DNA from: an uncultured Anaerolineales bacterium | GTDB taxonomy: Bacteria; Planctomycetota; Phycisphaerae; FEN-1346 | Assembly: GCA_964353455.1 (NCBI GenBank) | Contig: CAYGWP010000511.1 | Coordinates: 1 to 15,054 of the forward strand | Direction: 5' to 3' | Length of the DNA stretch: 15,054 nucleotides | Shown: positions 1,427 to 14,549 of the stretch, one piece after another | Numbering within the stretch: the stretch's first letter is position 1 | How the letters are laid out: each line of letters begins with the position of its first letter | Notes under the pieces: model-generated | What the model saw: only the letters and a program-made list of their open reading frames with translations | Database searches by the model: none | What the model was told of the DNA's origin: nothing | Program-made: the position numbers and the translations under genes

Positions 1427-2041
1427 CTATTCGTACTCGGTCTCAAGTTGCTTCAGGCGGTCCTGGGTTTCCTTCGAGAGGCCGGGGGCGGACTTCTCCT
1501 TGTCGGTCCCCTCCATCTCGCCCAGGCGCTGGTCGATGTCAATCGCCTCGCGCTCTTCCTCCTTGAACGTCTCCTTCATCATATCGCGGGTGGCGCGAGA
1601 CTGGGTTTCGAGGACCTCGAACTCCTCCTGCGCCTCGATGGCCACGGTATCGACCTCATCCTCGCTGGCCCCGCGTTCGCGCGCGGCCTTGATCTCGCCG
1701 ATCTTCGACAGCACCGCCGAGACCTGCCGGATGTTGCGCGAGATGATCCGGTGCCGCTCAAGGACGCGGTCGATCTCCTCGAAGGTCCGCTCGATCTCCT
1801 CAGCAATGACCTTGCGTGCAGAGCCTTTGGTCTTCTCGAACTCCTCTTTCTTCTTGAGCGCCCGCGTCTCAAGGCCGTGTATCTCCTCCTTGATTTCCTC
1901 CTCGCGGTCGTGGTTGGCGGCCTTGGCCCCGATGAGTCGGGCCTTGAGGTCCTCAAGGCGCTTGACGTCCGAAAGCCCCAGGCCCACCTTCTCGGCCAGG
2001 CGGCTGATGACGCTGCGAAGTCCCGCTGGAATCTCGGCCAT
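1427..2041 (-). CDS. Highly charged coiled-coil protein of 204 aa. A PspA/IM30 or ESCRT-III-like membrane-remodelling role is possible but unverified.
   Basis: ATG at 2041..2039 is preceded by GGGAGAGGAA (reverse complement of 2048-2057) with a ~6-nt spacer. The start lies 3 nt after the TAA stop (2045-2047) of the upstream peptidase gene, which suggests translational coupling. The protein is E/K/R/I-rich with heptad-like periodicity and no Cys or Trp. It does not look like an R/P/S-rich shadow ORF. It lacks the canonical PspA N-terminal amphipathic helix, so the family is unresolved. Confidence 0.75.
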   Translation of the reverse strand: MAEIPAGLRSVISRLAEKVGLGLSDVKRLEDLKARLIGAKAANHDREEEIKEEIHGLETRALKKKEEFEKTKGSARKVIAEEIERTFEEIDRVLERHRIISRNIRQVSAVLSKIGEIKAARERGASEDEVDTVAIEAQEEFEVLETQSRATRDMMKETFKEEEREAIDIDQRLGEMEGTDKEKSAPGLSKETQDRLKQLETEYE

Positions 2042-4441: not shown

Positions 4442-4486
4442 CGTGCGGCCTCCTGCGGTCCCGCGCCTCGGCGCGGCACCGTCCAC

Positions 4487-4509
4487 CCCTCTCCCGCAAG
4501 GGGAGAGGG
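4487..4509. repeat. Palindromic repeat family B, copy 2: CCCTCTCCC-GCAA-GGGGAGAGGG.
   Basis: The same 23-mer as copy 1. It sits in the leader between the small ORF stop (4567) and the peptidase ATG (4441), and overlaps the GTG-extended portion of the track ORF. Confidence 0.8.
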
Positions 4510-4528
4510 TTAACGCCGCTGCGGCGCC

Positions 4529-4556
4529 GCGCGGCGGGTCTCCCGACCCGCCGCGC
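4529..4556. repeat. Palindromic repeat family A: GCGCGGCGGGTC-TCCC-GACCCGCCGCGC, a 12-bp stem with a 4-nt loop.
   Basis: A perfect 12-bp inverted repeat. It lies 20 nt from B copy 2, in the leader of the peptidase gene. The loop is the complement of the loop at 7525-7528, so this copy is inverted relative to the copy at 7513-7540. Confidence 0.8.
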
Positions 4557-4566
4557 AGATGTCAAA

Positions 4567-4890
4567 CTACTGAATGCCGAACCGCCGCTTCTGCTCGTCC
4601 GTCAGGAGCGCCCCGTCGGGCGGGCGGCCGGCGTCGGGCTTCTCGAGGGCGGCGGCGCGCTCGCGGCCGACGGCCGACCGCAGCAATTCAAGCATCCGCG
4701 CGAGGCCCGGCTCGCCGAGTTCCAGAAGTCTCCGCAGCCCCTCTCGCCCCTCGGGCGTGGAGGCAAGGGCCAGGGCCTGCTCGGCCGTGCCGACCCACTG
4801 CCCCGCGAGTCGCTCGAGGGACGCGGCATCGAGGCCCACGACGTCGGCAAGCGGATGGTCCCGGCCCGGCTTTTCGCTCTTCGCTCCCAC
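4567..4890 (-). CDS. Small hypothetical protein of 107 aa with a GTG start.
   Basis: GTG at 4890..4888 is preceded by AAGGA (reverse complement of ~4896-4902). It lies 15 nt downstream of the kinase stop (TAA at 4906-4908). The composition is protein-like and Leu/Glu/Ala-rich rather than Arg/Pro/Ser junk. It fills the gap between two well-supported genes. I found no recognisable domain. Confidence 0.45.
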   Translation of the reverse strand: MGAKSEKPGRDHPLADVVGLDAASLERLAGQWVGTAEQALALASTPEGREGLRRLLELGEPGLARMLELLRSAVGRERAAALEKPDAGRPPDGALLTDEQKRRFGIQ

Positions 4891-4905: not shown

Positions 4906-7491
4906 TTATTGCTGCTGAATCTGTCCCACCGGGTTCCCGGCGGCGGTGTTGTCGGCGGCGATACTGGGCGAAGCGCCGCGCCAGAACTCGATGCCGTACC
5001 GTCCGTTTGAGTTGCACTTGTTGCGGCGGAGGGCCGGCGCCGTGCCGTCGCCCGATGCCGCGATGCCGCACGACTTGTTATTGCTGCATGTGTTCCCATC
5101 GGCCGTGCCGCCGGCCCCCTGGGCGAAGCAGATGCCGTGCTGCTCGTTGCCGGAGCAGACGTTGTCCTTCAGGGTCGGCGCGGTGCCGGCGTCGAGGACG
5201 AGGATGCCTGTATCCTTATTTTTGTCGCAGGTGCTGCCCTGTGCGATGCCTGCGGCGCCCTCGCCGAAATAGATGCCGCACTTCAAGTTCTCGGTGCAGA
5301 CGTTGCTCACGAGGCTGGGCGCGGCCCCGGCGCCGGTCACGGCGATGCCGGACCACTGGTTGGCCTTGCAGGTGTTCCCCTGGGCGGTGCCGCCGGCGCG
5401 TTTGCCGTAGGCGATGCCGTGATGTCCTGAGCCGACGGCGATGTTGTCGTTGATGATGGGCGTGGCATCGTCGCCGACGCGGATGCCGTCAAGCGCGCTC
5501 CCCTCCACGAGGCACTCGTGGATGAGGGGGCTGCACGCGCCCGTGATTGAGATGCCGCAGCCTGCGGCGGAGGCGATGCGGCACCGGAAGACTTCAACGG
5601 TGCTCGATACGATTTGGAGCGGGGACGGCCGCGCGGCGGCGCCCGATGCGCCCGCGCCGGCGTGCTGGAGCGTGAGGCCCGTCACGAGTCCGGACGAGCA
5701 GTTCCTCACGAGGAGGACGTCGGCCCGCGAGCCGTCCGAGCGGATGGTGACGCGGTCGTACCCTTCGCCGATGAGCCGCACGCCGTCCTTAAGTATAAGC
5801 GATTCGTCATAAGTTCCGGCATTGATGCGTACGGCGTCGCCGGGGCGGGCGGCATCTATGGCCGCCTGTATGGTCCGGTACTCGCCGGGCACGGCGAGTT
5901 CGGCCGGCCCCAGCAGGGCCTTGACGCGGGCCTGCATCCGGAGGGCCTCGGCGTGGGCCGGGTCGAGGCGGAGGATTTCGTCGATGGCCTTCATGGCGGC
6001 CTCGGCCTTCTCGCGGCCGTCGTTGGCCTTGGCGGCGGCCAGGAGTTTCCCGATCGTGATGCGCCGGTCCGCGGCGTCGCGCATCCGGCGGGCCTCCGCG
6101 TTGGCCGGGTCAACCTTGAGGAGTTCATCGAGTTTGGCGACGGCGGCGGCATCGTCCTTTTCGGACTTGGCGGCCGCCAGGAGTTGTGCGATTTTCTCTT
6201 CGCGTTTCTCGGCCGGGGACTCCTGCTTGGCGACTTCGCGGACCGGGGCGGCCTGCTCGCGGCGCTTGGCGTCGCCGGCGCCGCTGGACAGAAGGCCCTG
6301 GATGGCGGGCCATGCCACGAAGTAGATGCCGCAGGCCGCGCCGCCCAAGACCAGGACAAGCAGCACAAGGACGACCGGCCGGAGGGCGCGGCGTCTCGGC
6401 GCCTCTGGGGCGGCGGAAGACGAAACGGCCGCGTCGGTCAGCGGCAAGCGCGGCGGCTCCGGCTCAAGCGGCATATCGACCGGCACCACGGGCGCCGTGA
6501 CGGCAGCGATCTCGTCGGGCGTCTCGACGACTTCCACGGGCGGCGGGGCCGACGCCAGAAGCCCCACGAGGTCCGCGGCGGAGCGCGGCCGGCGCTCGGG
6601 CGTCTTCGCCAGCGCCCGGTGCAGGGCCGCGTTCATGTGGTCCGCGAGGCCCTGAATGGGGGGCGGCTCGGCATGGAGCAACTGATGCCCGATCGCCCCG
6701 CGGTAGAACGGCGGGTGCCCGGCAAGGCACTCATACAGGGTGGCCGCAAGGGAGTAGATGTCTGACGCCGGCGTCGGGTCCTTGCCGGAGTATTGCTCAG
6801 GCGACATATAAAGAAGGGTTCCGGTGGTCTCGCGGCCGGTTACGCGGGTGACCGAGTCCTTGAGTTCGCGGGCGATGCCGAAGTCGAGGACCTTGGCCGT
6901 GCCGTCGGACGCGACCATGATGTTGGAGGGTTTGACGTCGCGGTGGAGGACCGGCGGCCGCAGGTCGTGTGCGTAGTCGAGTGCGGCGGCCACATGGCGG
7001 GCGATCGGCTCCAGCATCTCCCACGGGAGACGGCGGCCGGGCTGCGCGGCCAGGATCGCCTCGAGCGTGCAGCCGGAGATGAACTCCATCACGAGGAACT
7101 TCGTGTCGGCGTCGGCGTGAAAATCGTGGAGGCGGCAGACGTGCGGGTGCGCGAGGCGCAGGCTGATGGCCGCCTCGCGCTTGAGGCCCGCGACGCTCGG
7201 CTGGTTCCGCGCAAGGACCATCGGCAGGACCTTGACGGCGACCGCGATGCCGAGTTCGCCGTCCTCGGCCTTCCAGACCTCGCCCATGCCGCCGGAGCCG
7301 GCCTTCTCGACGATCTTGTACCGGCCGGCCAGGACCGTGCCGGGCCCGATGGGCTCAGCGACAACGGTGTCGCCGTCGAGCGATTCGCCGCCGGTCGCCC
7401 GCCGCGGGGTCTGCGTGCTGAGGTCCGCCCCGCACGCGGTGCAGAACCGCACGCCGTCCGAGTTTTCCTGTCCGCACTTGCCGCAGAACAT
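4906..7491 (-). CDS. Multidomain Hanks-type Ser/Thr protein kinase. Order: N-terminal zinc ribbon, kinase domain, single TM helix, two TPR-like repeats, then a C-terminal right-handed parallel beta-helix (PbH1-type repeats).
   Basis: ATG at 7491..7489 gives MFCGKCGQENSDGVRFCTACG, a zinc ribbon. The track ORF extends to an upstream ATG at 7554. I reject that start because the extension would translate a palindromic repeat that also occurs intergenically at 4529-4556. Kinase motifs are GSGGMGEVWKA, AVKVL, HRDVKPSNIM, DFGIARE and GTLLYMSPEQ, encoded at ~6640-7330. The TM helix is RPVVLVLLVLVLGGAACGIYFVAWP at ~6330-6400. Two ~45-aa A/K/E-rich repeats lie at ~5930-6200. Repeating ~23-aa G-x-A-x-G-N-x-C units are encoded at 4906-5880. 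Confidence 0.9.
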   Translation of the reverse strand: MFCGKCGQENSDGVRFCTACGADLSTQTPRRATGGESLDGDTVVAEPIGPGTVLAGRYKIVEKAGSGGMGEVWKAEDGELGIAVAVKVLPMVLARNQPSVAGLKREAAISLRLAHPHVCRLHDFHADADTKFLVMEFISGCTLEAILAAQPGRRLPWEMLEPIARHVAAALDYAHDLRPPVLHRDVKPSNIMVASDGTAKVLDFGIARELKDSVTRVTGRETTGTLLYMSPEQYSGKDPTPASDIYSLAATLYECLAGHPPFYRGAIGHQLLHAEPPPIQGLADHMNAALHRALAKTPERRPRSAADLVGLLASAPPPVEVVETPDEIAAVTAPVVPVDMPLEPEPPRLPLTDAAVSSSAAPEAPRRRALRPVVLVLLVLVLGGAACGIYFVAWPAIQGLLSSGAGDAKRREQAAPVREVAKQESPAEKREEKIAQLLAAAKSEKDDAAAVAKLDELLKVDPANAEARRMRDAADRRITIGKLLAAAKANDGREKAEAAMKAIDEILRLDPAHAEALRMQARVKALLGPAELAVPGEYRTIQAAIDAARPGDAVRINAGTYDESLILKDGVRLIGEGYDRVTIRSDGSRADVLLVRNCSSGLVTGLTLQHAGAGASGAAARPSPLQIVSSTVEVFRCRIASAAGCGISITGACSPLIHECLVEGSALDGIRVGDDATPIINDNIAVGSGHHGIAYGKRAGGTAQGNTCKANQWSGIAVTGAGAAPSLVSNVCTENLKCGIYFGEGAAGIAQGSTCDKNKDTGILVLDAGTAPTLKDNVCSGNEQHGICFAQGAGGTADGNTCSNNKSCGIAASGDGTAPALRRNKCNSNGRYGIEFWRGASPSIAADNTAAGNPVGQIQQQ
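5935..6191 (-). repeat. Tandem duplication of ~110-120 nt, two copies about 147 nt apart and ~70% identical, inside the kinase gene. It encodes two TPR-like A/K/E-rich repeats.
   Basis: Copy 1 at 5935-6054 (CATCCGGAGGGCCTCGGCGTGGGCCGGGTCGAGGCGGAGGATTTCGTCGATGGC...) and copy 2 at 6082-6191 (CATCCGGCGGGCCTCCGCGTTGGCCGGGTCAACCTTGAGGAGTTCATCGAGTTTGGC...) are visibly similar. The matching protein repeats are IAQLLAAAKSEKDDAAAVAKLDELLKVDPANAEARRM and IGKLLAAAKANDGREKAEAAMKAIDEILRLDPAHAEALRM. Confidence 0.55.
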
Positions 7492-7512
7492 CAGTTGTCG
7501 GCCCTTACCCCG

Positions 7513-7540
7513 GCGCGGCGGGTCGGGAGACCCGCCGCGC
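7513..7540. repeat. Palindromic repeat family A: GCGCGGCGGGTC-GGGA-GACCCGCCGCGC.
   Basis: The stem is identical to 4529-4556, in the opposite orientation. It lies 22 nt upstream of the kinase ATG (7491). Confidence 0.8.
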
Positions 7541-7575
7541 AAAGCATGAAGCAATGTTGTCGAGAGGCTCCGTCA

Positions 7576-7600
7576 CCACGGGTTGACGAGTGACCCGTGG
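7576..7600. repeat. Stem-loop CCACGGGT-(9 nt)-ACCCGTGG.
   Basis: An 8-bp perfect inverted repeat in the structured leader between repeats A and B upstream of the kinase gene. Confidence 0.5.
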
Positions 7601-7625
7601 CACTCAAACGGCCCCCTCACCCCGG

Positions 7626-7648
7626 CCCTCTCCCGCGAGGGGAGAGGG
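7626..7648. repeat. Palindromic repeat family B, copy 3: CCCTCTCCC-GCGA-GGGGAGAGGG.
   Basis: The stem is identical to copies 1 and 2. The loop is GCGA instead of GCAA, so the orientation is the same. It lies in the 207-nt spacer between the SPFH gene stop (7699) and the kinase ATG (7491). Confidence 0.8.
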
Positions 7649-7658
7649 AGACAACACG

Positions 7659-7676
7659 CGGCGGACAAGTCCGCCG
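7659..7676. repeat. Stem-loop CGGCGGA-CAAG-TCCGCCG, a 7-8 bp stem.
   Basis: An inverted repeat 23 nt downstream, on the minus strand, of the SPFH gene stop. It may be a terminator or processing hairpin, but no U-tract follows it. Confidence 0.4.
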
Positions 7677-7698
7677 GCTAAATGTTAAGTGTGAGTCA

Positions 7699-9525
7699 TC
7701 ATTTCTGCGGCTTGCCGCACTGGGAGCAGAAGGCGCCGTCGCCCTCGAGTTGGGCGTTGCAGTGTCTGCAACACGGGACGTTGATGACGACGGGCGGCCC
7801 CATGCCGCCACCGCCGGTCACGACCGTTTGAGCGGCATGGTGCGGCGCCTGGGCGCGTGTGACGGCCACGCCGCCCATCTCGTGCATGGCGACGCGTGCG
7901 ACGCGCTCTGTCCGGTTCGCCTCGTTCTGGTAGATGGAACGGATCTCGGCCAGATGTTCCTTGAGTATCCGCGCCTCGCCGACCGCCACCTGCCCCTCGG
8001 CCTCGTACTTCTTGGCGAGCGCTGCGGCGGCATCGGGGGAGGCGGCAGAGAGCACGGCCAGTATCTGTTCGGGGGTCATGTTCTGCTGGGCGCGGAGTTC
8101 CTCCAGGCGTGCGATGCGGTCTGCGGCCGGGCCATCGACGATTGAAAGGAGGGCTGCGGCGGTGGCCTTGCCGCGGGCCTCGAGGGTCCTGGCCTCGACC
8201 TCCTGTGCGTCGAGGGCGCGTTTGTGGTCGAGTTCCTCGACCTCCTCGCGGAGGCGGAGCGCCTCCTCGGCCTGGCGGATGTCCTCGATGTTTTCGAGGC
8301 GCTCGAGTTCCAGTTGGATTTTGCGTTTCTCGGCATCAGTCTTAGCGGTTTCGAGTTCGCGGCGGAGTTGTCGTGTGTGCCCCTCGTCGCGCTGCCGCTC
8401 CTCGGAGATGAGTTCTTCCCAGGCCCTGTCCCGGCGGGCCTTGTCGGAGATGGTTTCGATTTCGATCCGCCGCAGGAGTCCCTCGCGGTCGCGCTCGAAG
8501 CGGAATCGCTCCTTCAGGCGTTCCATCTCGTCTTCGCGGATGACCTGCTTGATGCCGAGTTCATGCTCGGTCTGGCGGACGAAGTCCTCGAAGTCCTTCT
8601 CGGTCTTGAAGGCGTGCATCTTGTCTTCGGTGAGGTTTTCGCGCAGCCGCTGGCCGAGGCGTGTGCGTGCGATCGTAAGTTCGGCCTCCTCCTCAGCGAG
8701 CCTCAGTTCGGCCTTCTCGCGGCGGATCTTCTCGTACGCCTCGCCGAAGAAGCGGATGAACCTGAGTTGCACCAGTTCCAGGCCCAGCCGCGTCAGGGTC
8801 CGCGCAATCGTCTCGCGGAGGTCCTGCTCGATGCGGTTGCGGATCTCAAGTTTCGTAAAGAGGTCCACGGTCGGGTACTGGTGGACGATGCCCGCGAGGA
8901 GCATCTGTACTTCGCCGGCCATCTGCGATTCGAGGTCCGCCAGTTCGACGCGGTTCCGGCCCTTGAAGAGGTTGACGAACATGGCGTCGGGGTCGCGTGC
9001 GCGGAAGACGAGGCGCTCGGCGGTGCCGACCTCCTGGCCGTCTTCGGTCCAGAGGTCGCCGTTCTCGACGTCGATGATGACGTCGCCGGCATCGCAGATG
9101 ATGGCGCTGGCGGGCTCGTGGACGAGGAAGTTGCGGAGTTTGCTGAGGAAGCCGCCCATGTCGTAGCGTCCCTCGCCGAGTTCGCCCTTGAACTCGCCGT
9201 TCTGGAAGAGGAGCGCCCGCGTTCCGTGCTCGACGATGAGGGGCTTGGTGAGCCAGCCCTGGATGTCCTGGTCATCGACGCGGACGGCGAAGTCTTCGGG
9301 CCTGCGCGACCAGCGGTCCTCGATGAGGATGGGCTTGCTCATGATCGCCAGGTCGGCCCCGCACCGCCAGCAGAACTTCGAGGCGGTGCTGACCTCGGCC
9401 TTGCAAGCCCCGCACATGGCCAGGCCCCTGGGGGCGTTTCCGCCGCAGTGCGGGCAGAACCGCGAACCCTTGCGGACCCGCATGTTGCACTCCGGGTTCC
9501 TGCACTTGTCGGTGAAGATTCCCAT
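7699..9525 (-). CDS. SPFH (band-7/flotillin-like) domain protein with two tandem N-terminal zinc ribbons, a long charged coiled coil and a C-terminal zinc ribbon. 608 aa.
   Basis: ATG at 9525..9523 has a strong RBS, AAGGAG with a 6-nt spacer (reverse complement of 9532-9537). The N-terminus carries CRNPECNMRVRKGSRFCPHCG and CGACKAEVSTASKFCWRCG. The central region matches SPFH-core features (...LIVEHGTRALLFQNGEFKGELGEGRYDM..., ...VDLFTKLEIRNRIEQDLRETIARTLTRLGLELVQLRFIRF...), followed by an E/R/A-rich heptad region typical of flotillin/HflK tails. The C-terminus is CCRHCNAQLEGDGAFCSQCG. Confidence 0.8.
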   Translation of the reverse strand: MGIFTDKCRNPECNMRVRKGSRFCPHCGGNAPRGLAMCGACKAEVSTASKFCWRCGADLAIMSKPILIEDRWSRRPEDFAVRVDDQDIQGWLTKPLIVEHGTRALLFQNGEFKGELGEGRYDMGGFLSKLRNFLVHEPASAIICDAGDVIIDVENGDLWTEDGQEVGTAERLVFRARDPDAMFVNLFKGRNRVELADLESQMAGEVQMLLAGIVHQYPTVDLFTKLEIRNRIEQDLRETIARTLTRLGLELVQLRFIRFFGEAYEKIRREKAELRLAEEEAELTIARTRLGQRLRENLTEDKMHAFKTEKDFEDFVRQTEHELGIKQVIREDEMERLKERFRFERDREGLLRRIEIETISDKARRDRAWEELISEERQRDEGHTRQLRRELETAKTDAEKRKIQLELERLENIEDIRQAEEALRLREEVEELDHKRALDAQEVEARTLEARGKATAAALLSIVDGPAADRIARLEELRAQQNMTPEQILAVLSAASPDAAAALAKKYEAEGQVAVGEARILKEHLAEIRSIYQNEANRTERVARVAMHEMGGVAVTRAQAPHHAAQTVVTGGGGMGPPVVINVPCCRHCNAQLEGDGAFCSQCGKPQK

Positions 9526-9558
9526 GCGTTTCTCCTTAACCGCGCCGGAGCCCGGCGG

Positions 9559-10242
9559 CTACAGCGGCCGCGCGGCGTGCCGGACCGCGCGCGTCAGGCC
9601 GCGCAATATGAGCAGGATGATGATCAGCGCCAGGAGCGCCCCGATCAGCAGCAGCGGGTAGCGCCAGAACTCCATGATGGCATCGCTCCAGTGGATGTAC
9701 GCCTCGCCGACCACCGGGCCGCTCGACCAGAGTATCTGGCCGGTCTCAACGTCGGCCATGCGGACGGTCATCTTGACGTAGCCGCGTATGCTCCAGAGGT
9801 TGAGGCCCGATTCCCAGATGTCGCCGTACAGGATGGCATCGACGCCCTTGATCTTGCCGAACTTCTGGACCGTGGCGGAGTCCATCACGTCCTCTCGCTT
9901 GACGCCCCACTCGATCTCGGCCAGCAACTTGTCCCACGTCTCATCGAGGCGCGTGAACAGTTTGAACTGGGACTTCGTGAGGGCGGTCTTCATGGCGTTG
10001 GTGGCGTAGAGGTTGTCGGTGTCGCGCCGCAGCGGGATGACCGCCACGTTCGGCACGTCGGCGAATCGTTTGGGGTCTTCGGCCCGCCTTGCAGCCAGGC
10101 TGTCCTGGACCTGTGCAACGGCGACATCCATGGCCCGCTGTACGGTGTCTTCCTCGCTGGCGGCGGCCGGCGGCGCCGATGCCAGGACCGTCACGAAGAG
10201 TCCGAGGAGGATTGCGGCAGAAAGTCGTGCATGCGTTCTCAT
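9559..10242 (-). CDS. Exported protein of 227 aa with a CsgG/LpoB-like fold. It has an N-terminal signal peptide and a C-terminal TM anchor.
   Basis: ATG at 10242..10240 is preceded by GGGAGA with a 7-nt spacer. The signal peptide is MRTHARLSAAILLGLFVTVLASAPPAAAS. The core VAVIPL...LFTRLDETWDKLLAEIEW...GKIKGVDAILYGDIWES...YVKMTVRMADVETGQILWS follows the CsgG/LpoB/TolB-N pattern (buried [IV]-x-[IV]-x-P, a G-x-D-x-[IL]-x-G strand, and a terminal V-x-L-[IV]-D-x-x-TG-x-[IV]-x-W-S). The C-terminal hydrophobic stretch is LLLIGALLALIIILLILRGL. Confidence 0.7.
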   Translation of the reverse strand: MRTHARLSAAILLGLFVTVLASAPPAAASEEDTVQRAMDVAVAQVQDSLAARRAEDPKRFADVPNVAVIPLRRDTDNLYATNAMKTALTKSQFKLFTRLDETWDKLLAEIEWGVKREDVMDSATVQKFGKIKGVDAILYGDIWESGLNLWSIRGYVKMTVRMADVETGQILWSSGPVVGEAYIHWSDAIMEFWRYPLLLIGALLALIIILLILRGLTRAVRHAARPL

Positions 10243-10283
10243 GGCGTGATCTCCCTATGGTTTCGCGTGGTCTTTGGCAACGG

Positions 10284-11294
10284 TTATTGCCAGTGCCTGC
10301 GTCGGGCGTCGATGACCTCGCCCTTGCGTTCGATGCGTTTGATCTCTATGCCGCCCCTGCGGAGTTCCGACACGTAGGCCGTCAGGAACCGTTCGACGTC
10401 GAAGCGGCAGAGAACTTCGTACACGGCCAACTGCTGCTTGTCGTCCCAGAATTCGAGCGATACGTAGTAGATGCCCGGCCGGGCCTGGAGCCCGACGCGC
10501 AGGTCGTCGGCCTGGTCGGCATTGTCGATGTTGCCGACATACATGCTGACGCGCACGAGGCTGGTGGCCTCCCACTTGCGGACGACCTCGTCCGTCAGGT
10601 AGGTGGCGAGGTCCTTTGCGGCTGATTCCTGCGCGTCCTCGGCGGCCTGTCGCTCATCGAGGGCCCTGCGTCCGCGCTTCAGGATCGTCCGCGACGCGAT
10701 CACCTGGTGCGTCGCCAGGTTCAGCACCTTCGCGTTCATGTTGCTCTCGAAGGACCAGAAGTTGCCGAACTTGTCCTGCTTCTTCGAGTCGCCCTGGACG
10801 ACGATTGCGATATTGCAGTCGTTCGCCTTTCGGAACGCATCCTGCATGCTCTCTGAGGGCGCCGAGCCCATGCTGGACGTGCTCTGGATGACCTTGAAGC
10901 CCAATTCGGCCAGTTTCTGCGTGAGGGCGTTGCGTGCGGCGTCCGACGGCTCGATGCCCGTCGAGAGCACCAGCCGCTCATCCGCGCTCACGATGAGGCG
11001 CTGGAGGTTAAGGAGCGTCTGCTCGATGATCCGCTGCTTCTCGGCGTCCGACATCTGGCCCTTCAGCGGCGGACGGAAACCCGTCACCACGTCGGGCCGC
11101 TGGGCCGGCGGATGCACCGGCACCACCTCCTGCGGCGGCGGAGGAGGCGGCGTCTGGAACTCCGGCCCGGGCCGCACGGGCTGCGCACGCGGACCCGGCC
11201 AATCCGGCTCGTGCCGCCGGTCCGGGCCGCATCCTGAGAGCATTGCGGCCGCCACCACGACAAGAATCCCGATCGCAACTCTGTGCGGCGTCAT
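10284..11294 (-). CDS. Lipoprotein of 336 aa. It has a Pro-rich disordered linker and a C-terminal globular domain of unknown function, possibly an LpoB-like fold.
   Basis: The track ORF starts upstream at 11345. An in-frame ATG at 11294..11292 is preceded by AAGGAG (reverse complement of 11302-11307) with a 7-nt spacer. It gives MTPHRVAIGILVVVAAAMLSGC, a classic SPase II signal with lipobox LSG|C. A ~50-aa Pro-rich tract follows, PGPRAQPVRPGPEFQTPPPPPPQEVVPVHPP. Lipobox plus Pro-rich linker plus globular domain is the LpoB-type layout. The downstream domain is protein-like but I do not recognise it. Confidence 0.75.
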   Translation of the reverse strand: MTPHRVAIGILVVVAAAMLSGCGPDRRHEPDWPGPRAQPVRPGPEFQTPPPPPPQEVVPVHPPAQRPDVVTGFRPPLKGQMSDAEKQRIIEQTLLNLQRLIVSADERLVLSTGIEPSDAARNALTQKLAELGFKVIQSTSSMGSAPSESMQDAFRKANDCNIAIVVQGDSKKQDKFGNFWSFESNMNAKVLNLATHQVIASRTILKRGRRALDERQAAEDAQESAAKDLATYLTDEVVRKWEATSLVRVSMYVGNIDNADQADDLRVGLQARPGIYYVSLEFWDDKQQLAVYEVLCRFDVERFLTAYVSELRRGGIEIKRIERKGEVIDARRRHWQ

Positions 11295-11341
11295 GGTCCG
11301 TCTCCTTTCACCGTTAGATGAATCGTTTTCAATAGGTTCGG

Positions 11342-12604
11342 TCACGTCCTGGAAATCACCAGCCCGGAGTCCTTGGCCTCATATAGCGTGAATTCCCCGC
11401 CGCGGGCAAGTTCGCCGAACGCGGCGCGGACCCAACTCGCGTCGGCCCGGCAGGACCGGACCGCACCGGCCAGCGTCACGGCGTTCTTGCGCTGGACGGC
11501 CTCGCGGATCTCCTCGATGCACCGGGCCAACTCCGCGGCATACCGGGCAGGGGCGACCAGCGGCCAGAACGGCCAGAGGCGCTTGTCGGATTCATCCATG
11601 ATGACCCGGTCGGCCGCAAGGTCCCCGAGCGCCAGGGCGGCCCGCCGGTCGCGGAACGCCTTCGCGTGATGCCGCTTGGCGACCACGGCCGCCGCATCCT
11701 CTGTCCAGCCCGTCGGCGAGGCCACGACGACGACGCGGAAACCTTCCTTGCCCTCGGTCCCGACGATTAAGGAATTCAGATATGCACTAAGTTCTGATTC
11801 GCCGACCGGCTCGACGTCGTACCCCTGCGTGCGGAGCGTCTCGGGCCGCGCCAGAAACCGCGCCTCAAGCACCAGGCACCCCTTGGGCTTTCCCCAGCCG
11901 CCGGTGCGAAGGGTGAAGCGGCTGGCGCGGTTCAGGGGCCCGTGGCCGTCGTCGCGCTGGGGCGATTCGATCTCGTGCGCCACGCGGGCGTCGCGCAGCG
12001 GAATCGCCAGACCTGACAGCGGGTCCGGCAGTTCGTCGATCTCGTCGAGCCGCTGGCCGAACGACCGGAGGAACGTCTCCTCCGCGAGGCGCGCCTCGGC
12101 CGCCGTCGCGACGGGCCGGCCTTCGGCACGCAGCCGCGCGACCGTCTGCTCGACCGTTTCCCTCGCGGCCGGCCTCTCGACCGGCGCGGGGGCAATGGAA
12201 GCAGCCGAGCCCGCCGCGGGAGCGGCGGGGCATATTTCAGTCGATTCCTCCGGCTCTTCCGCCGGGTGCTCTTCGCAAACCCTGATTTTCCGTATCGACC
12301 AGCAGGCCTGGCAGATCTCGCCGCCGCACTCCTCGCATGGGCCGCCGACCGACAATTCGCTCACCATCGCCTTGCCACAGGCCCCGCACCGCAGGCCCTC
12401 CAGGGCCGTCAGGCCGCGCTTGGCCTCGGTGGCGACCCGCTCCTTCTGCTTCTCGAAGTAGGCGTCGAGGTCCTCGGCCCGGACGCGGTAGATGCGACCG
12501 ATCTTGCCGGCGGGTATCTCGCCGCCGCGGACCAGGCGATAGATGGTCTTGTACTCGACCCCAAGCCGGTCCGCCGCTTCTTCCAGTGTCAGATAGTCAG
12601 CCAT
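11342..12604 (-). CDS. Putative DNA-binding protein of 420 aa. It has an N-terminal excisionase/MerR-type helix-turn-helix, a zinc ribbon, and a C-terminal domain of unknown function.
   Basis: ATG at 12604..12602. The N-terminus MADYLTLEEAADRLGVEYKTIYRLVRGGEIPAGKIGRIYRVRAEDLDAYFE is a textbook excisionase-family HTH_17 signature. The zinc ribbon is CGACGK...CEECGGEICQAC at ~12300-12390. The C-terminal ~270 aa is unrecognised. An AT-rich intergenic island lies upstream. Confidence 0.8.
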   Translation of the reverse strand: MADYLTLEEAADRLGVEYKTIYRLVRGGEIPAGKIGRIYRVRAEDLDAYFEKQKERVATEAKRGLTALEGLRCGACGKAMVSELSVGGPCEECGGEICQACWSIRKIRVCEEHPAEEPEESTEICPAAPAAGSAASIAPAPVERPAARETVEQTVARLRAEGRPVATAAEARLAEETFLRSFGQRLDEIDELPDPLSGLAIPLRDARVAHEIESPQRDDGHGPLNRASRFTLRTGGWGKPKGCLVLEARFLARPETLRTQGYDVEPVGESELSAYLNSLIVGTEGKEGFRVVVVASPTGWTEDAAAVVAKRHHAKAFRDRRAALALGDLAADRVIMDESDKRLWPFWPLVAPARYAAELARCIEEIREAVQRKNAVTLAGAVRSCRADASWVRAAFGELARGGEFTLYEAKDSGLVISRT

Positions 12605-12795
12605 GACAGGATTCCGTAGAGATGTCCCCTTTCCAATTGCCGTGGAGTCTGTCGCAATGAGATACGCAAGTCAAGGACTTTTCTTGCCTCACTTACCCGG
12701 AATATCCCTCTCTTTCCCGAGATTTTCATAAGTCGTTGTCGCAAAAGGAATTATGGCCCTCGATATGAGGCACAAACTGCCCCCATGCCAACACG

Positions 12796-12813
12796 CGGTC
12801 GCCAAGGCGACCG
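12796..12813 (-). terminator. Hairpin CGGTCGCC-AA-GGCGACCG downstream of the FHA gene. Possibly an intrinsic terminator-like structure without a U-tract.
   Basis: A perfect 8-bp inverted repeat 24 nt after the FHA gene stop (TGA at 12839..12837). It lies at the edge of the only AT-rich island in the window. Confidence 0.35.
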
Positions 12814-12836
12814 GCTAAATGGGGGCTTCGGGGGTT

Positions 12837-14549
12837 TCACCGCCCGATCTGCTGAAACTCCTTCACGGTGCCGCCCATGTTGCCGAAGGTAACCTTCATG
12901 CCGAGCGCCAGGGGGCACGCGCAGCCACGAGGCACGCCGATGCCGTCGGCCGTCACGCCCTTGTCCTGGACGAGGCTTTCGAGCCAGAACTGGCCGCCAA
13001 GGCGGATGATGCGGACGTGCGCGCGGCGGAGGCCCGCCGTCGGGTCGCGCACCAGCAGTTCGCTGCCTTGCCCGCGGCCGACGTTGGCCCAGCGATAGAC
13101 GACGAGGTACTTCTCATCCTCGGCCAGGTTATCGACGCGCCGGATCATGAGCGACCGTAGTTTCAGGCGCGCCGCCGTCTGCCACAGATCGTCGGCGGAA
13201 CCCAGGGCGCTGTAACGCTTCGGGTCCAATCCCGGCTGGTCTTCAGCATCCCTGAACGGAATCAGCCGCAGGCGCAGTGCCTTCGCCACGTCCACGACGG
13301 ACGGCTGGTCAAGCGGCACCTTGACCTCGCCGCGCACGGCATGGCCGTTAAGTTCCGTGCCGTTCCTGGTGTCCTGGTCGGCGAGGAAAAGGCCGTCGGA
13401 CCGAAGCGACAGGACACAGTGCGGCCCCTTGTGGCCGCTGATCAGAAAAGACAACTTGTCGTTCTCCGGGTTCCTCGGCAGGACGACCAGCGAGATGTCG
13501 CTATTGGATCGGCTGCGGCCCAGGCGAATCTCGGGGATGCCGAGGAGGCACACGCGGGGGGCGTCGGGCTCGGCGGACGAGATGATGGCGGCCCGGTCCA
13601 TCGGCGCGCGCGGCGGCACATGGCCCCTGACGACGCGGACGGGCCGGCCTTCCTTGTCGCGCTGGCGGCGGGTCTCATCCTCGTCGAATGCCAGCGACAG
13701 CGCCGTCCACTGGTCGCTGAACGACCGGTGCATGATCTGGTTCACGTCCTTGACGAGGCCCTCGGAGATGACCTGCTTGGCCTCCTGGCTGACGCTGCTG
13801 CCGAAGATCTTGCTCCCGCCCTCGGGGCGGACGCTCTGGTCGATCTGGACAACGAGGCTCTGGAGGTTCTCAGGCCGCGCCAGCACCATGAGCACCGCCT
13901 GGGCGGTCCAGCAGAACGGCTCGCCGCCGAGTTCGTACTTCAGGGCAAGGTCCACAAGCATCTCGCCGGGAATATCGAGCCTCAACTGCATCCGGTGCCG
14001 CGCATCCCTGTGCGCGGCCAGACGCATCGTACACTCTTGCACCGCGCCGACGAGTTGCCCCGTCACCCTCAGGCAAACGTTGTTCAGGGCCTGGTCGGTC
14101 CCGTTGACGAAACGGAAGTCAAGGACGGCGGCCATATTTTCCATGTAGAAATGGTTATCATTGATTTCGATCGCGACGGCGGGCGGGCGGCCCTCGTCGT
14201 CGCAGACATCGGCCTCGCCGGCCGGGGCAGAGAGCGCCTCCTGCTCCTCGGTCCGGGCCTCCTCCTGCGTCAGACGCAGGTGGTCCCGCTTCTCATCCAG
14301 CGCCCGGCGGTCGTGACCGTCCAGGACGCCGTCGGACCACCGCTGGAGGACTTCCTGGCGGTACTCGGCCACGGCCTTGGCCTTGTCGCGGGGAATCGTC
14401 TCGGCCTGCTCCATAAGATCGCCCGCCGGAGCCGCCGCAGGCGCCCCGGCCGCCGCAGGCGCTGCCGCACGCAGCGCCCCGCCGCACGCGGCGCAGAACG
14501 ACTCCTTGTCGTCGTAGGCCTCCGACCCGCACTTCTCGCAACGTTTCAT
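12837..14549 (-). CDS. Zinc-ribbon protein of 570 aa with two FHA (forkhead-associated, phospho-Thr-binding) domains.
   Basis: ATG at 14549..14547 is preceded by AAGGGGG with a 6-nt spacer. The N-terminus is MKRCEKCGSEAYDDKESFCAACG, a zinc ribbon. FHA domain 1 is LGRSRSNSDISLVVLPRNPENDKLSFLISGHKGPHCVLSLRSDGLFLADQDTRNGTELNGHAV, with the G-R...S..H..L....NGT..NG hallmarks, at ~13340-13570. A second FHA-like region lies at the C-terminus, ~12840-13150 (AHVRIIRLGGQFWLESLVQDKGVTADG...). Confidence 0.85.
   Translation of the reverse strand: MKRCEKCGSEAYDDKESFCAACGGALRAAAPAAAGAPAAAPAGDLMEQAETIPRDKAKAVAEYRQEVLQRWSDGVLDGHDRRALDEKRDHLRLTQEEARTEEQEALSAPAGEADVCDDEGRPPAVAIEINDNHFYMENMAAVLDFRFVNGTDQALNNVCLRVTGQLVGAVQECTMRLAAHRDARHRMQLRLDIPGEMLVDLALKYELGGEPFCWTAQAVLMVLARPENLQSLVVQIDQSVRPEGGSKIFGSSVSQEAKQVISEGLVKDVNQIMHRSFSDQWTALSLAFDEDETRRQRDKEGRPVRVVRGHVPPRAPMDRAAIISSAEPDAPRVCLLGIPEIRLGRSRSNSDISLVVLPRNPENDKLSFLISGHKGPHCVLSLRSDGLFLADQDTRNGTELNGHAVRGEVKVPLDQPSVVDVAKALRLRLIPFRDAEDQPGLDPKRYSALGSADDLWQTAARLKLRSLMIRRVDNLAEDEKYLVVYRWANVGRGQGSELLVRDPTAGLRRAHVRIIRLGGQFWLESLVQDKGVTADGIGVPRGCACPLALGMKVTFGNMGGTVKEFQQIGR

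Follow-up and report, generated by a model that had tools for sequence, protein, structure and literature searches.

The stretch of DNA analysed here (the window) is the 15,054 nucleotides (nt) of contig CAYGWP010000511.1 (assembly GCA_964353455.1), from an uncultured bacterium of the Phycisphaerae (Planctomycetota). Its GC content is about 68%, and all credible genes are on the minus strand. Our subject is a group of these genes whose products carry small, cysteine-rich sites that are predicted to bind zinc: a protein with forkhead-associated (FHA) domains, a helix-turn-helix (HTH) protein, an SPFH/Band 7 scaffold and a membrane kinase. These are listed below with the two genes that lie among them and with a second kinase.

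12837-14549, minus strand: FHA protein, 570 amino acids (aa), N-terminal ribbon
11342-12604, minus strand: HTH_17/excisionase-type protein, 420 aa, Cys7His module
10284-11345, minus strand: lipoprotein, 353 aa, lipobox LSGC, three Cys, without a ribbon
9559-10242, minus strand: LpoB-like bitopic protein, 227 aa, no Cys, without a ribbon
7699-9525, minus strand: SPFH/Band 7 protein, 608 aa, three ribbons
4906-7491, minus strand: Hanks-type Ser/Thr kinase, 861 aa counted from MFCGKCG, N-terminal ribbon and periplasmic beta-helix
1-1307, minus strand: second Ser/Thr kinase, partial (leaves the contig), without a ribbon

A search with the pattern C-x(2-4)-C-x(8-14)-C-x2-C returned six Cys4-type sites in four minus-strand proteins, whereas 5000 shuffles of the nine proteins averaged 0.012 sites and yielded one at most; hence, the motifs are real. 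The three plus-strand frames contained no such motif. The six sites are as follows (R1, R2 and RC denote the two N-terminal ribbons and the C-terminal ribbon of the SPFH protein).

14481-14540, minus strand: FHA ribbon, aa4-23, CEKCGSEAYDDKESFCAACG, C-x2-C-x11-C-x2-C
12266-12388, minus strand: HTH site, aa73-113, CGACGKAMVSELSVGGPCEECGGEICQACWSIRKIRVCEEH, reading CGACGK...CEECGGEICQAC...C..H
9442-9504, minus strand: SPFH R1, aa8-28, CRNPECNMRVRKGSRFCPHCG, with a C-x4-C first knuckle
9358-9414, minus strand: SPFH R2, aa38-56, CGACKAEVSTASKFCWRCG
7714-7770, minus strand: SPFH RC, aa586-604, CRHCNAQLEGDGAFCSQCG
7429-7485, minus strand: kinase ribbon, aa3-21, CGKCGQENSDGVRFCTACG

A preliminary description of the window, made from its letters alone, had reported that the same zinc ribbon recurs in four consecutive proteins, at the extreme N-terminus in three of them and always in the cytoplasm, and had read this as one small module shared by all four. 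The recurrence of zinc-ribbon-like motifs far above the shuffled expectation bears out the first part of this, and the coordinates confirm the three N-terminal positions. The cytoplasmic location is also soundly deduced: the FHA, HTH and SPFH proteins contain no transmembrane (TM) or other hydrophobic segment, and the kinase ribbon precedes the only TM segment of its protein (aa373-391), so all six sites should be cytoplasmic. The four proteins are not consecutive, however, as the lipoprotein and LpoB-like genes, both without a ribbon, separate the HTH gene from the SPFH gene. Nor is the motif the same throughout, given the longer first knuckle of R1 and an HTH site that has a 13-residue spacer, lacks the F-C pair and adds three conserved Cys and a His. 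Outside the Cys, Gly and Phe that define the family, the window ribbons are only 0-33% identical over 12 positions. The earlier observation is thus real but over-unified: the non-random recurrence of a small zinc module is upheld for one kinase and for the FHA and SPFH proteins, but the HTH protein carries a different module.

Five of the six sites, the FHA ribbon probably included, belong to a known and very widespread group of ribbons, as indicated by Pfam scores, by matches among homologues and by an orthologue of the FHA protein. The segments were scored against hidden Markov models of zinc ribbons, with curated cut-offs of 25 bits for Zn_Ribbon_1 (PF13240) and 27.3 bits for DZR (PF12773). 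The kinase ribbon is the clearest member (Zn_Ribbon_1, 41.6 bits alone and 34.5 bits in context). Scored alone, R1 and RC reached 24.5 and 22.1 bits against Zn_Ribbon_1, and R2 reached 23.3 bits against DZR; in the context of the SPFH protein, both models exceeded their cut-offs (32.7 and 31.7 bits, respectively), and both were matched by 65 of 65 SPFH homologues (E ≤0.01). The FHA ribbon scored 18-22 bits with generic ribbon models, all below cut-off (Zn_Ribbon_1 18.1, DZR 21.1), and the FHA orthologue from L005, one of seven related loci examined (L003, L005, L007, L009, L010, L011 and L012), exceeded the Zn_Ribbon_1 cut-off with 27.4 bits. The knuckle spacing of the two families (two CxxC or CxxxxC knuckles, about 8-14 residues apart) is found in the FHA ribbon, R1, R2, RC and the kinase ribbon. 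Likeness extends to the typical pattern of two CxxC knuckles about 10-11 residues apart, each followed by a Gly and the second preceded by an aromatic residue, from which R1 departs in its first knuckle. These sites are therefore ordinary Zn_Ribbon_1/DZR four-cysteine ribbons, predicted to bind zinc; the generic family assignment holds for five sites but not for the HTH site, which matched no ribbon model. Both families are found at protein termini and on many architectures, and public annotation already names such proteins [quoted passage not shown] Membership explains the structure of the sites rather than their role, because no function is assigned to these Pfam families. Nothing on function was found in the literature on PF13240, and Scholz 2021 does not mention zinc. 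The NCBIfam "4-Cys prefix" kinase domain (NF045510) is matched weakly by the first kinase (16.6 bits against a cut-off of 24).

The five ribbons are not closer to one another than to other ribbons, as a module common to the cluster had implied. With the four Cys, the Gly and the Phe masked, identity between ribbons at orthologous positions was 0.48, 0.37 and 0.23, compared with 0.10-0.22 between classes, and between-class identity within the same genome showed no excess over that across genomes (0.224 vs 0.191, 0.149 vs 0.139 and 0.100 vs 0.104). The window kinase and FHA ribbons are no nearer to the SPFH ribbons of the window than to those of other genomes. Concerted evolution or recent shuffling among the window ribbons was rejected on this masked comparison. 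Mean net charge also differs by class (R1 +3.3, R2 +1.6, RC +0.3, FHA -2.0, kinase type A 0.0, kinase type B -1.2). Class-specific identity and systematic charge differences together argue that the ribbons are old, separately maintained and chemically distinct. Judged by these comparisons, every ribbon has long been inherited vertically at a fixed position in its host protein and keeps a conserved loop sequence and charge of its own. About 60 unrelated genes flanking the cluster encode essentially no ribbons, the two exceptions being split-off and duplicated pieces of the FHA protein.

In the HTH protein, the ligands follow the pattern C-x2-C-x13-C-x2-C-x4-C-x2-C-x8-C-x2-H (Cys7His). C73, C76, C90, C98 and C101 are invariant in 48 HTH sequences, and C110 and W102 nearly so; C93 and H113 occur together in 35 of these sequences, are both absent from 12 and are discordant in one. 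A pattern search had indicated that 16 of 59 HTH homologues lack the Cys cluster. Alignment rejects this, since these 16 keep the five invariant Cys and have lost only C93 and H113, and sometimes C110 too. Neither the window protein nor any of the 48 homologues matched a ribbon family (E ≤0.1), and the best ribbon match of the isolated segment was to DZR_2 (E 2.1). The isolated segment gave insignificant B-box (E 0.56), FYVE (E 0.84) and RING matches, and the 48 homologues gave weak matches to FYVE, FYVE_2 (E 0.033 in 6/48), zf-CRD and Prok-RING_4; no named cross-brace family was matched significantly (E 0.03-5). Because C93 and H113 are present or absent together, albeit in related sequences, they are likely to share a site with C90 and C110. 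C73 and C76 would therefore pair with C98 and C101 in an interleaved, two-zinc arrangement. The module is most likely a cross-brace, with C73/C76/C98/C101 as site 1 and C90/C93/C110/H113 as site 2, in which case the four Cys of the supposed ribbon would be divided between two zinc sites rather than share one. The eight ligands and the C-x2-C-G-x3-C-x2-C core resemble those of cross-brace fingers (FYVE, B-box, RING and Prok-RING), the co-loss of ligands is consistent with interleaved sites, and the likeness in spacing is a lead rather than a test. Overall, the module is apparently a separate, uncatalogued zinc finger.

In an AlphaFold2 (AF2) model of the HTH protein (predicted local distance difference test [pLDDT] 90.5), a winged HTH domain is followed by the zinc module; a disordered linker then leads to an alpha/beta domain, and a second winged helix forms the C-terminus. 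No solved relative of the alpha/beta domain was found, and a sequence search of the PDB with the protein was uninformative. The Cys7His module also occurs on a 129-aa HTH-only protein in L009. A further copy (CGNCGKRIVSELGIVGRCQVCQAALCAEC) lies at the C-terminus of a Peptidase_C14 caspase in L007 (6818-7834), just upstream of the genes for the lipoprotein, the LpoB-like protein and the SPFH protein, and this fusion suggests that the module is mobile between architectures.

The FHA protein consists of the N-terminal ribbon, a beta-rich middle domain ("IEINDNHFYME..."), an FHA domain at aa342-418 (Pfam FHA, 33.9 bits) and a second FHA-like region at about aa488-556, which gave a weak TagH-FHA match only. 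Its orthologues are 36-44% identical over the full length, and the acidic ribbon is kept in every full-length orthologue examined. In L009, the protein is split into one gene for the ribbon and middle domain and another for the two FHA domains. In L010, a duplicate of the ribbon and the middle domain of about 220 aa (66% identity) is joined to another ribbon and an FGE-sulfatase domain. By its distribution among these architectures, the ribbon travels with the middle domain and not with the FHA domains. The tandem order in L010 (5715-9627) is bAvd, the ribbon-middle domain-ribbon-FGE-sulfatase gene, bAvd and the FHA gene, and the duplication (66% identity) covers the pair of bAvd genes and, in the two proteins downstream, the N-terminal ~220 residues. 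This is the one clear recent duplication, in which the ribbon was copied together with its neighbouring domain. bAvd and FGE-type domains are typical of the targets of diversity-generating retroelements; no reverse transcriptase was seen within the L010 locus.

The SPFH protein begins with the double zinc ribbon, which is followed by the SPFH domain, a helical region of about 300 aa (aa~262-557), a disordered linker (553-582) and the C-terminal ribbon. Band_7 (PF01145) was matched with 30.1-33.8 bits (cut-off 23.6). A Foldseek search with the AF2 model (pLDDT 79.6) returned stomatin, prohibitin, HflK/C, flotillin and erlin (E 2.5e-9 to 1e-5), and a PDB sequence search was uninformative. We found 100 homologues, the named relatives being metagenome-assembled genomes of Planctomycetota, Phycisphaerae and Sedimentisphaerales; a scan of genome contigs for relatives yielded only two distant (31% identity) Verrucomicrobiota loci, which were not used further. 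An SPFH protein cluster identical at 100% is on record, although the contig index held no exact copy of the sequence. Across the 100 homologues, R1 has the consensus C.NPeC..RVrKGakFCPkC and is strongly basic. R2 (CG.CGaeV..sSKFCWkC; kept in 93/100) is basic with a conserved Trp, and RC (C.hCga.le.gg.FCP.C; kept in 87/100) is near neutral. The FHA and SPFH ribbons are kept in every orthologous locus examined.

The first kinase comprises the ribbon, a kinase domain (Pkinase, 140 bits), one TM segment, periplasmic helical repeats and a right-handed beta-helix (Beta_helix, 128 bits), and a 98%-identical database protein begins at the same Met. A search of 1.84 billion representatives gave more than 1 million matches; among the best 150, which were examined, 104 have an N-terminal kinase domain, and 45 of these 104 (43%) carry an N-terminal Cys4 ribbon. 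Two subtypes of kinase ribbon occur (CGKCGxEN.DGxRFCxxC and CPYCAEEIQDEAVKCKHC). Only about 4-5 of the 16 kinases in loci around the cluster have a ribbon, and these belong to two unrelated subtypes. The second kinase of the window, whose translation begins MPGANHNDDLDD... and continues with a kinase domain, one TM segment and a Pro-rich tail, contains no Cys4 motif in the partial sequence available (1-1307), and its kinase domain is a 70% DNA repeat of that of the first (534-804 vs 6682-6952). Kinase ribbons are thus common but sporadic. They are a frequent prefix among the closest relatives without being ubiquitous, as the second kinase and most neighbouring kinases lack them, and there is no co-variation with the FHA ribbon, a constant feature.

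The gene order of the window (FHA, HTH, lipoprotein, ~220-aa protein, SPFH, kinase or kinases) is repeated exactly in L010, on a 2.17 Mb contig, and in L012. L003, L005, L007 and L009 keep the lipoprotein-bitopic-SPFH core with FHA, HTH and kinase genes nearby in varying order, and L011 has the HTH gene without the SPFH gene. In 7/7 loci, the product of the gene directly upstream of SPFH starts with a signal peptide and ends in a C-terminal TM helix with a short basic tail, and the gene before it encodes a lipobox. In the window, this upstream gene matches LpoB (30.2 bits) and is predicted to encode a signal peptide, a periplasmic domain, a C-terminal TM helix and a short basic cytoplasmic tail; the lipoprotein matched no Pfam family. 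Many HTH and SPFH homologues sit on contigs of equal size. In gene content and order, this is a conserved Phycisphaerae cluster of FHA, HTH-lipoprotein-bitopic LpoB-like-anchorless SPFH and Ser/Thr kinase genes.

Two of the related loci encode, after the cluster, a coiled-coil protein of about 200 aa (L005 12004-12597 and L011 15955-16557) with a weak Snf7 match (E 0.078), together with a single-domain classic AAA ATPase (L005 12604-13746 and L011 16554-17699). The L005 ATPase matched Vps4_C marginally (22.4 bits against a cut-off of 21.3). Its best PDB matches were to Cdc48/p97 D2, which leaves a specifically Vps4-like identity unsupported. It is possible that the two genes form a bacterial pair resembling ESCRT-III and Vps4 (ESCRT, endosomal sorting complex required for transport) beside SPFH.

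The remaining features of the window are three genes and three families of short, GC-rich palindromic elements (e.g., CCCTCTCCCGCAAGGGGAGAGGG), which are confined to intergenic gaps.

4567-4890, minus strand: small open reading frame (orf107), 107 aa
2045-4486, minus strand: papain-like (Peptidase_C1) protein, 813 aa, C-terminal hydrophobic segments
1427-2041, minus strand: coiled-coil protein (cc204), 204 aa
1330-1358, 4482-4510 and 7621-7649, intergenic: one palindrome family
4529-4557 and 7513-7541, intergenic: a palindrome family
7652-7684 and 12789-12821, intergenic: a palindrome family

The palindromes lie downstream of the cc204, orf107, SPFH and FHA genes and look like repetitive extragenic palindrome (REP)-like elements or terminator hairpins that likely mark the ends of transcription units. 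Successive genes from HTH through lipoprotein and bitopic protein to SPFH are spaced by -4, 41 and 33 nt (the lipoprotein gene and the HTH stop overlap by 4 nt), and the gaps outside that run measure 232 and 207 nt; this spacing, together with the hairpin repeats located past the FHA and SPFH genes, points to three transcription units. The 813-aa protein has a weak Peptidase_C1 (papain-family) domain at aa142-339 followed by a large uncharacterised middle region, and the coiled-coil gene starts 3 nt past its stop. The 204-aa coiled-coil protein is Cys-free and weakly similar (pairwise E 0.008) to a 214-aa protein encoded between HTH and lipoprotein in L005. It matched no PspA or Snf7 profile, so a PspA or ESCRT-III identity is unsupported, and PspA_IM30 was matched by no window protein.

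Among the systems studied so far, the pspA-ydjGHI operon of Bacillus subtilis comes closest. Its SPFH protein, SamI/YdjI, is likewise cytosolic and anchorless, with a C-terminal zinc motif and a long region that is helical or of low complexity; in both systems, the SPFH gene directly follows genes for potential membrane recruiters, and a zinc ribbon is also found on a partner (PMC9239133; PMC10936438). Two membrane proteins, SamH and the zinc-ribbon-bearing SamG, recruit SamI (bioRxiv 10.64898/2026.02.06.704340; PMC9239133), which in turn recruits PspA (PMC9239133). The window SPFH protein differs in its additional N-terminal double ribbon and falls short of the YdjI-type family Band_7_1 (PF13421; 13.2 bits against a cut-off of 24), which is matched by 26/65 members of its own family (E ≤0.01). 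The partners encoded upstream of it read as a lipoprotein and a bitopic protein of LpoB type rather than as SamG and SamH, no PspA was recognised in the window, and FHA, HTH and Hanks kinase genes are added. HflK/C, stomatin, prohibitin, flotillin and erlin form membrane-attached cages with an N-terminal anchor and a C-terminal closure (PDB entries). The window protein shares with them an SPFH alpha/beta domain followed by long helices (Foldseek). Such cage-forming proteins have an N-terminal TM segment or hairpin as anchor, whereas the window protein has the basic double ribbon in that place. In archaea, ESCRT loci, which serve membrane remodelling, code for SPFH + coiled-coil + Zn-ribbon proteins, and FHA domains and kinases are found in further loci of this kind (Makarova et al. 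2024, PMC10936438). The same combination of SPFH, coiled coil and Zn ribbon, and the association with FHA and Ser/Thr kinases, are seen here, but the hosts are bacterial, the Snf7 match is insignificant and that to Vps4_C marginal, and the AAA/coiled-coil pair lies outside the window, in L005 and L011.

Taken as a whole, these results are probably best explained by five generic ribbons and one unrelated Cys7His module on the proteins of a conserved cluster, which would act in membrane signalling. The SPFH protein would oligomerise into a cage of the stomatin/HflK kind at the cytoplasmic side of the inner membrane, where its basic, Trp-bearing N-terminal double ribbon would replace the missing membrane anchor. 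R1 and R2 may contact anionic lipid, the cytoplasmic end of a bitopic partner or both, and the C-terminal ribbons could gather at the apex of the cage. The kinases would be sensors of the periplasm, with the FHA protein and the HTH regulator as readers of phosphorylation; the FHA and kinase ribbons may be small, zinc-stabilised interaction knobs private to their own proteins. We infer this mechanism in its entirety from sequence, models and precedent. The SPFH-cage fold and the SamI/YdjI and archaeal ESCRT precedents suggest that the SPFH ribbons most likely serve in attachment to membrane or partner and in cage closure, and it is plausible that they help attach the anchorless scaffold to the membrane.

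Several points weigh against this explanation. RC and the FHA ribbon lie below the Pfam cut-off when scored alone, as do R1 and R2, slightly, when scored singly. The AF2 model of the SPFH protein is a monomer and is silent on oligomers, and a direct charge contact between R1/R2 and the bitopic tail is not obvious, because the tail is itself basic. The cross-brace assignment draws on motif spacing and on correlated loss among related sequences, which are not independent events. Links of the ribbons to the membrane, to the bitopic protein or to other ribbons are inferred only, and the striking concentration of ribbons in the cluster is unexplained by generic modules alone.

That concentration, set against their near absence from the ~60 flanking genes, is the first argument for a common docking or co-assembly handle, by which the kinase, FHA, HTH and SPFH proteins would be tethered to one another or to the membrane. 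The conservation of the ribbons in FHA and SPFH orthologues, the lack of a TM segment in the SPFH protein and the zinc motifs of both SamI and its recruiter SamG (PMC9239133) are consistent with such a handle, and the acidic FHA and kinase ribbons could dock to the basic R1 and R2 by charge. However, the HTH module is of a different fold class, the ribbons show neither an excess of similarity within a genome nor co-evolution, and their surfaces differ. Few of the locus kinases have a ribbon (~4-5/16, in two unrelated subtypes, and none on the second kinase), the FHA ribbon segregates with the middle domain rather than the FHA domains, and the invariant neighbours of SPFH are two envelope proteins without ribbons. 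One handle for all four proteins, as the preliminary description had proposed, is therefore not supported and fails on that description's own terms, given the class of the HTH module, similarity, charge and kinase co-variation; we regard any common handle as unlikely.

A more elaborate version confines docking to complementary partners: the acidic ribbons of the FHA protein and of some kinases would dock onto the basic SPFH double ribbon to give a phospho-signalling platform specific to Planctomycetota. The double ribbon would then lie at the membrane-proximal rim of an anchorless SPFH cage, some genomes would couple the platform to a small coiled-coil protein and a classic AAA ATPase resembling ESCRT-III/Vps4, and the cross-brace zinc finger of the HTH protein would be a bacterial type not catalogued before. 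We consider this combination of claims very unlikely to hold jointly.

The genes could also form an anti-phage or conflict system in which the ribbons are effector-associated adaptor modules. PADLOC matches point this way (PD-T4-6 and mad6 for the kinase, mad1 for the HTH protein), as do the caspase-Cys7His fusion, DUF4384, FGE-sulfatase kinases, bAvd genes and an OLD nuclease in related loci. Yet the PADLOC matches are generic kinase and HTH matches, with none for 6/8 window proteins, and the NCBIfam scores are all far below cut-off (MADS1, 33.6 against 80; MADS6, 125 against 460). The conserved core consists of an SPFH scaffold and envelope proteins, with no effector. Membership in a defence system was rejected on the grounds that only generic PADLOC matches were found, and this interpretation appears highly improbable. 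A role of the ribbons as nucleic-acid-binding or regulatory elements that would link the cluster to DNA or RNA alongside the HTH protein, as proposed for TFIIB-type ribbons, seems still less probable. R1 and R2 are strongly basic, the YdjG zinc ribbon is described as of the DNA-binding type (PMC9239133) and the HTH protein has two winged-helix domains, but RC is neutral and acidic ribbons occur on the FHA protein and type-B kinases. The ribbons, moreover, sit on a scaffold at the membrane, a reader of phosphopeptides and a membrane kinase, with no nucleic-acid-related domain beside them. Least probable of all are redox or zinc-sensing switches that would tune cluster activity under oxidative or metal stress, as no thioredoxin, peroxiredoxin or metal-transport genes occur in the neighbourhoods examined and the conservation of the Cys4 sites fits structural zinc equally well.

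With generic ribbons and a separate Cys7His module on a conserved signalling cluster as the favoured explanation, the ribbons themselves mostly rediscover a very common, functionally uncharacterised bacterial zinc-ribbon prefix. The useful product is their context, a cluster whose SPFH scaffold has traded its membrane anchor for a basic double ribbon at the same position. It offers a tractable second example, beside SamI/YdjI of B. subtilis, for the membrane targeting of anchorless SPFH proteins, and a concrete test case for the role of the Zn_Ribbon_1 domain. The ESCRT-like link in related loci, if true, would bear on membrane remodelling in the Planctomycetota.

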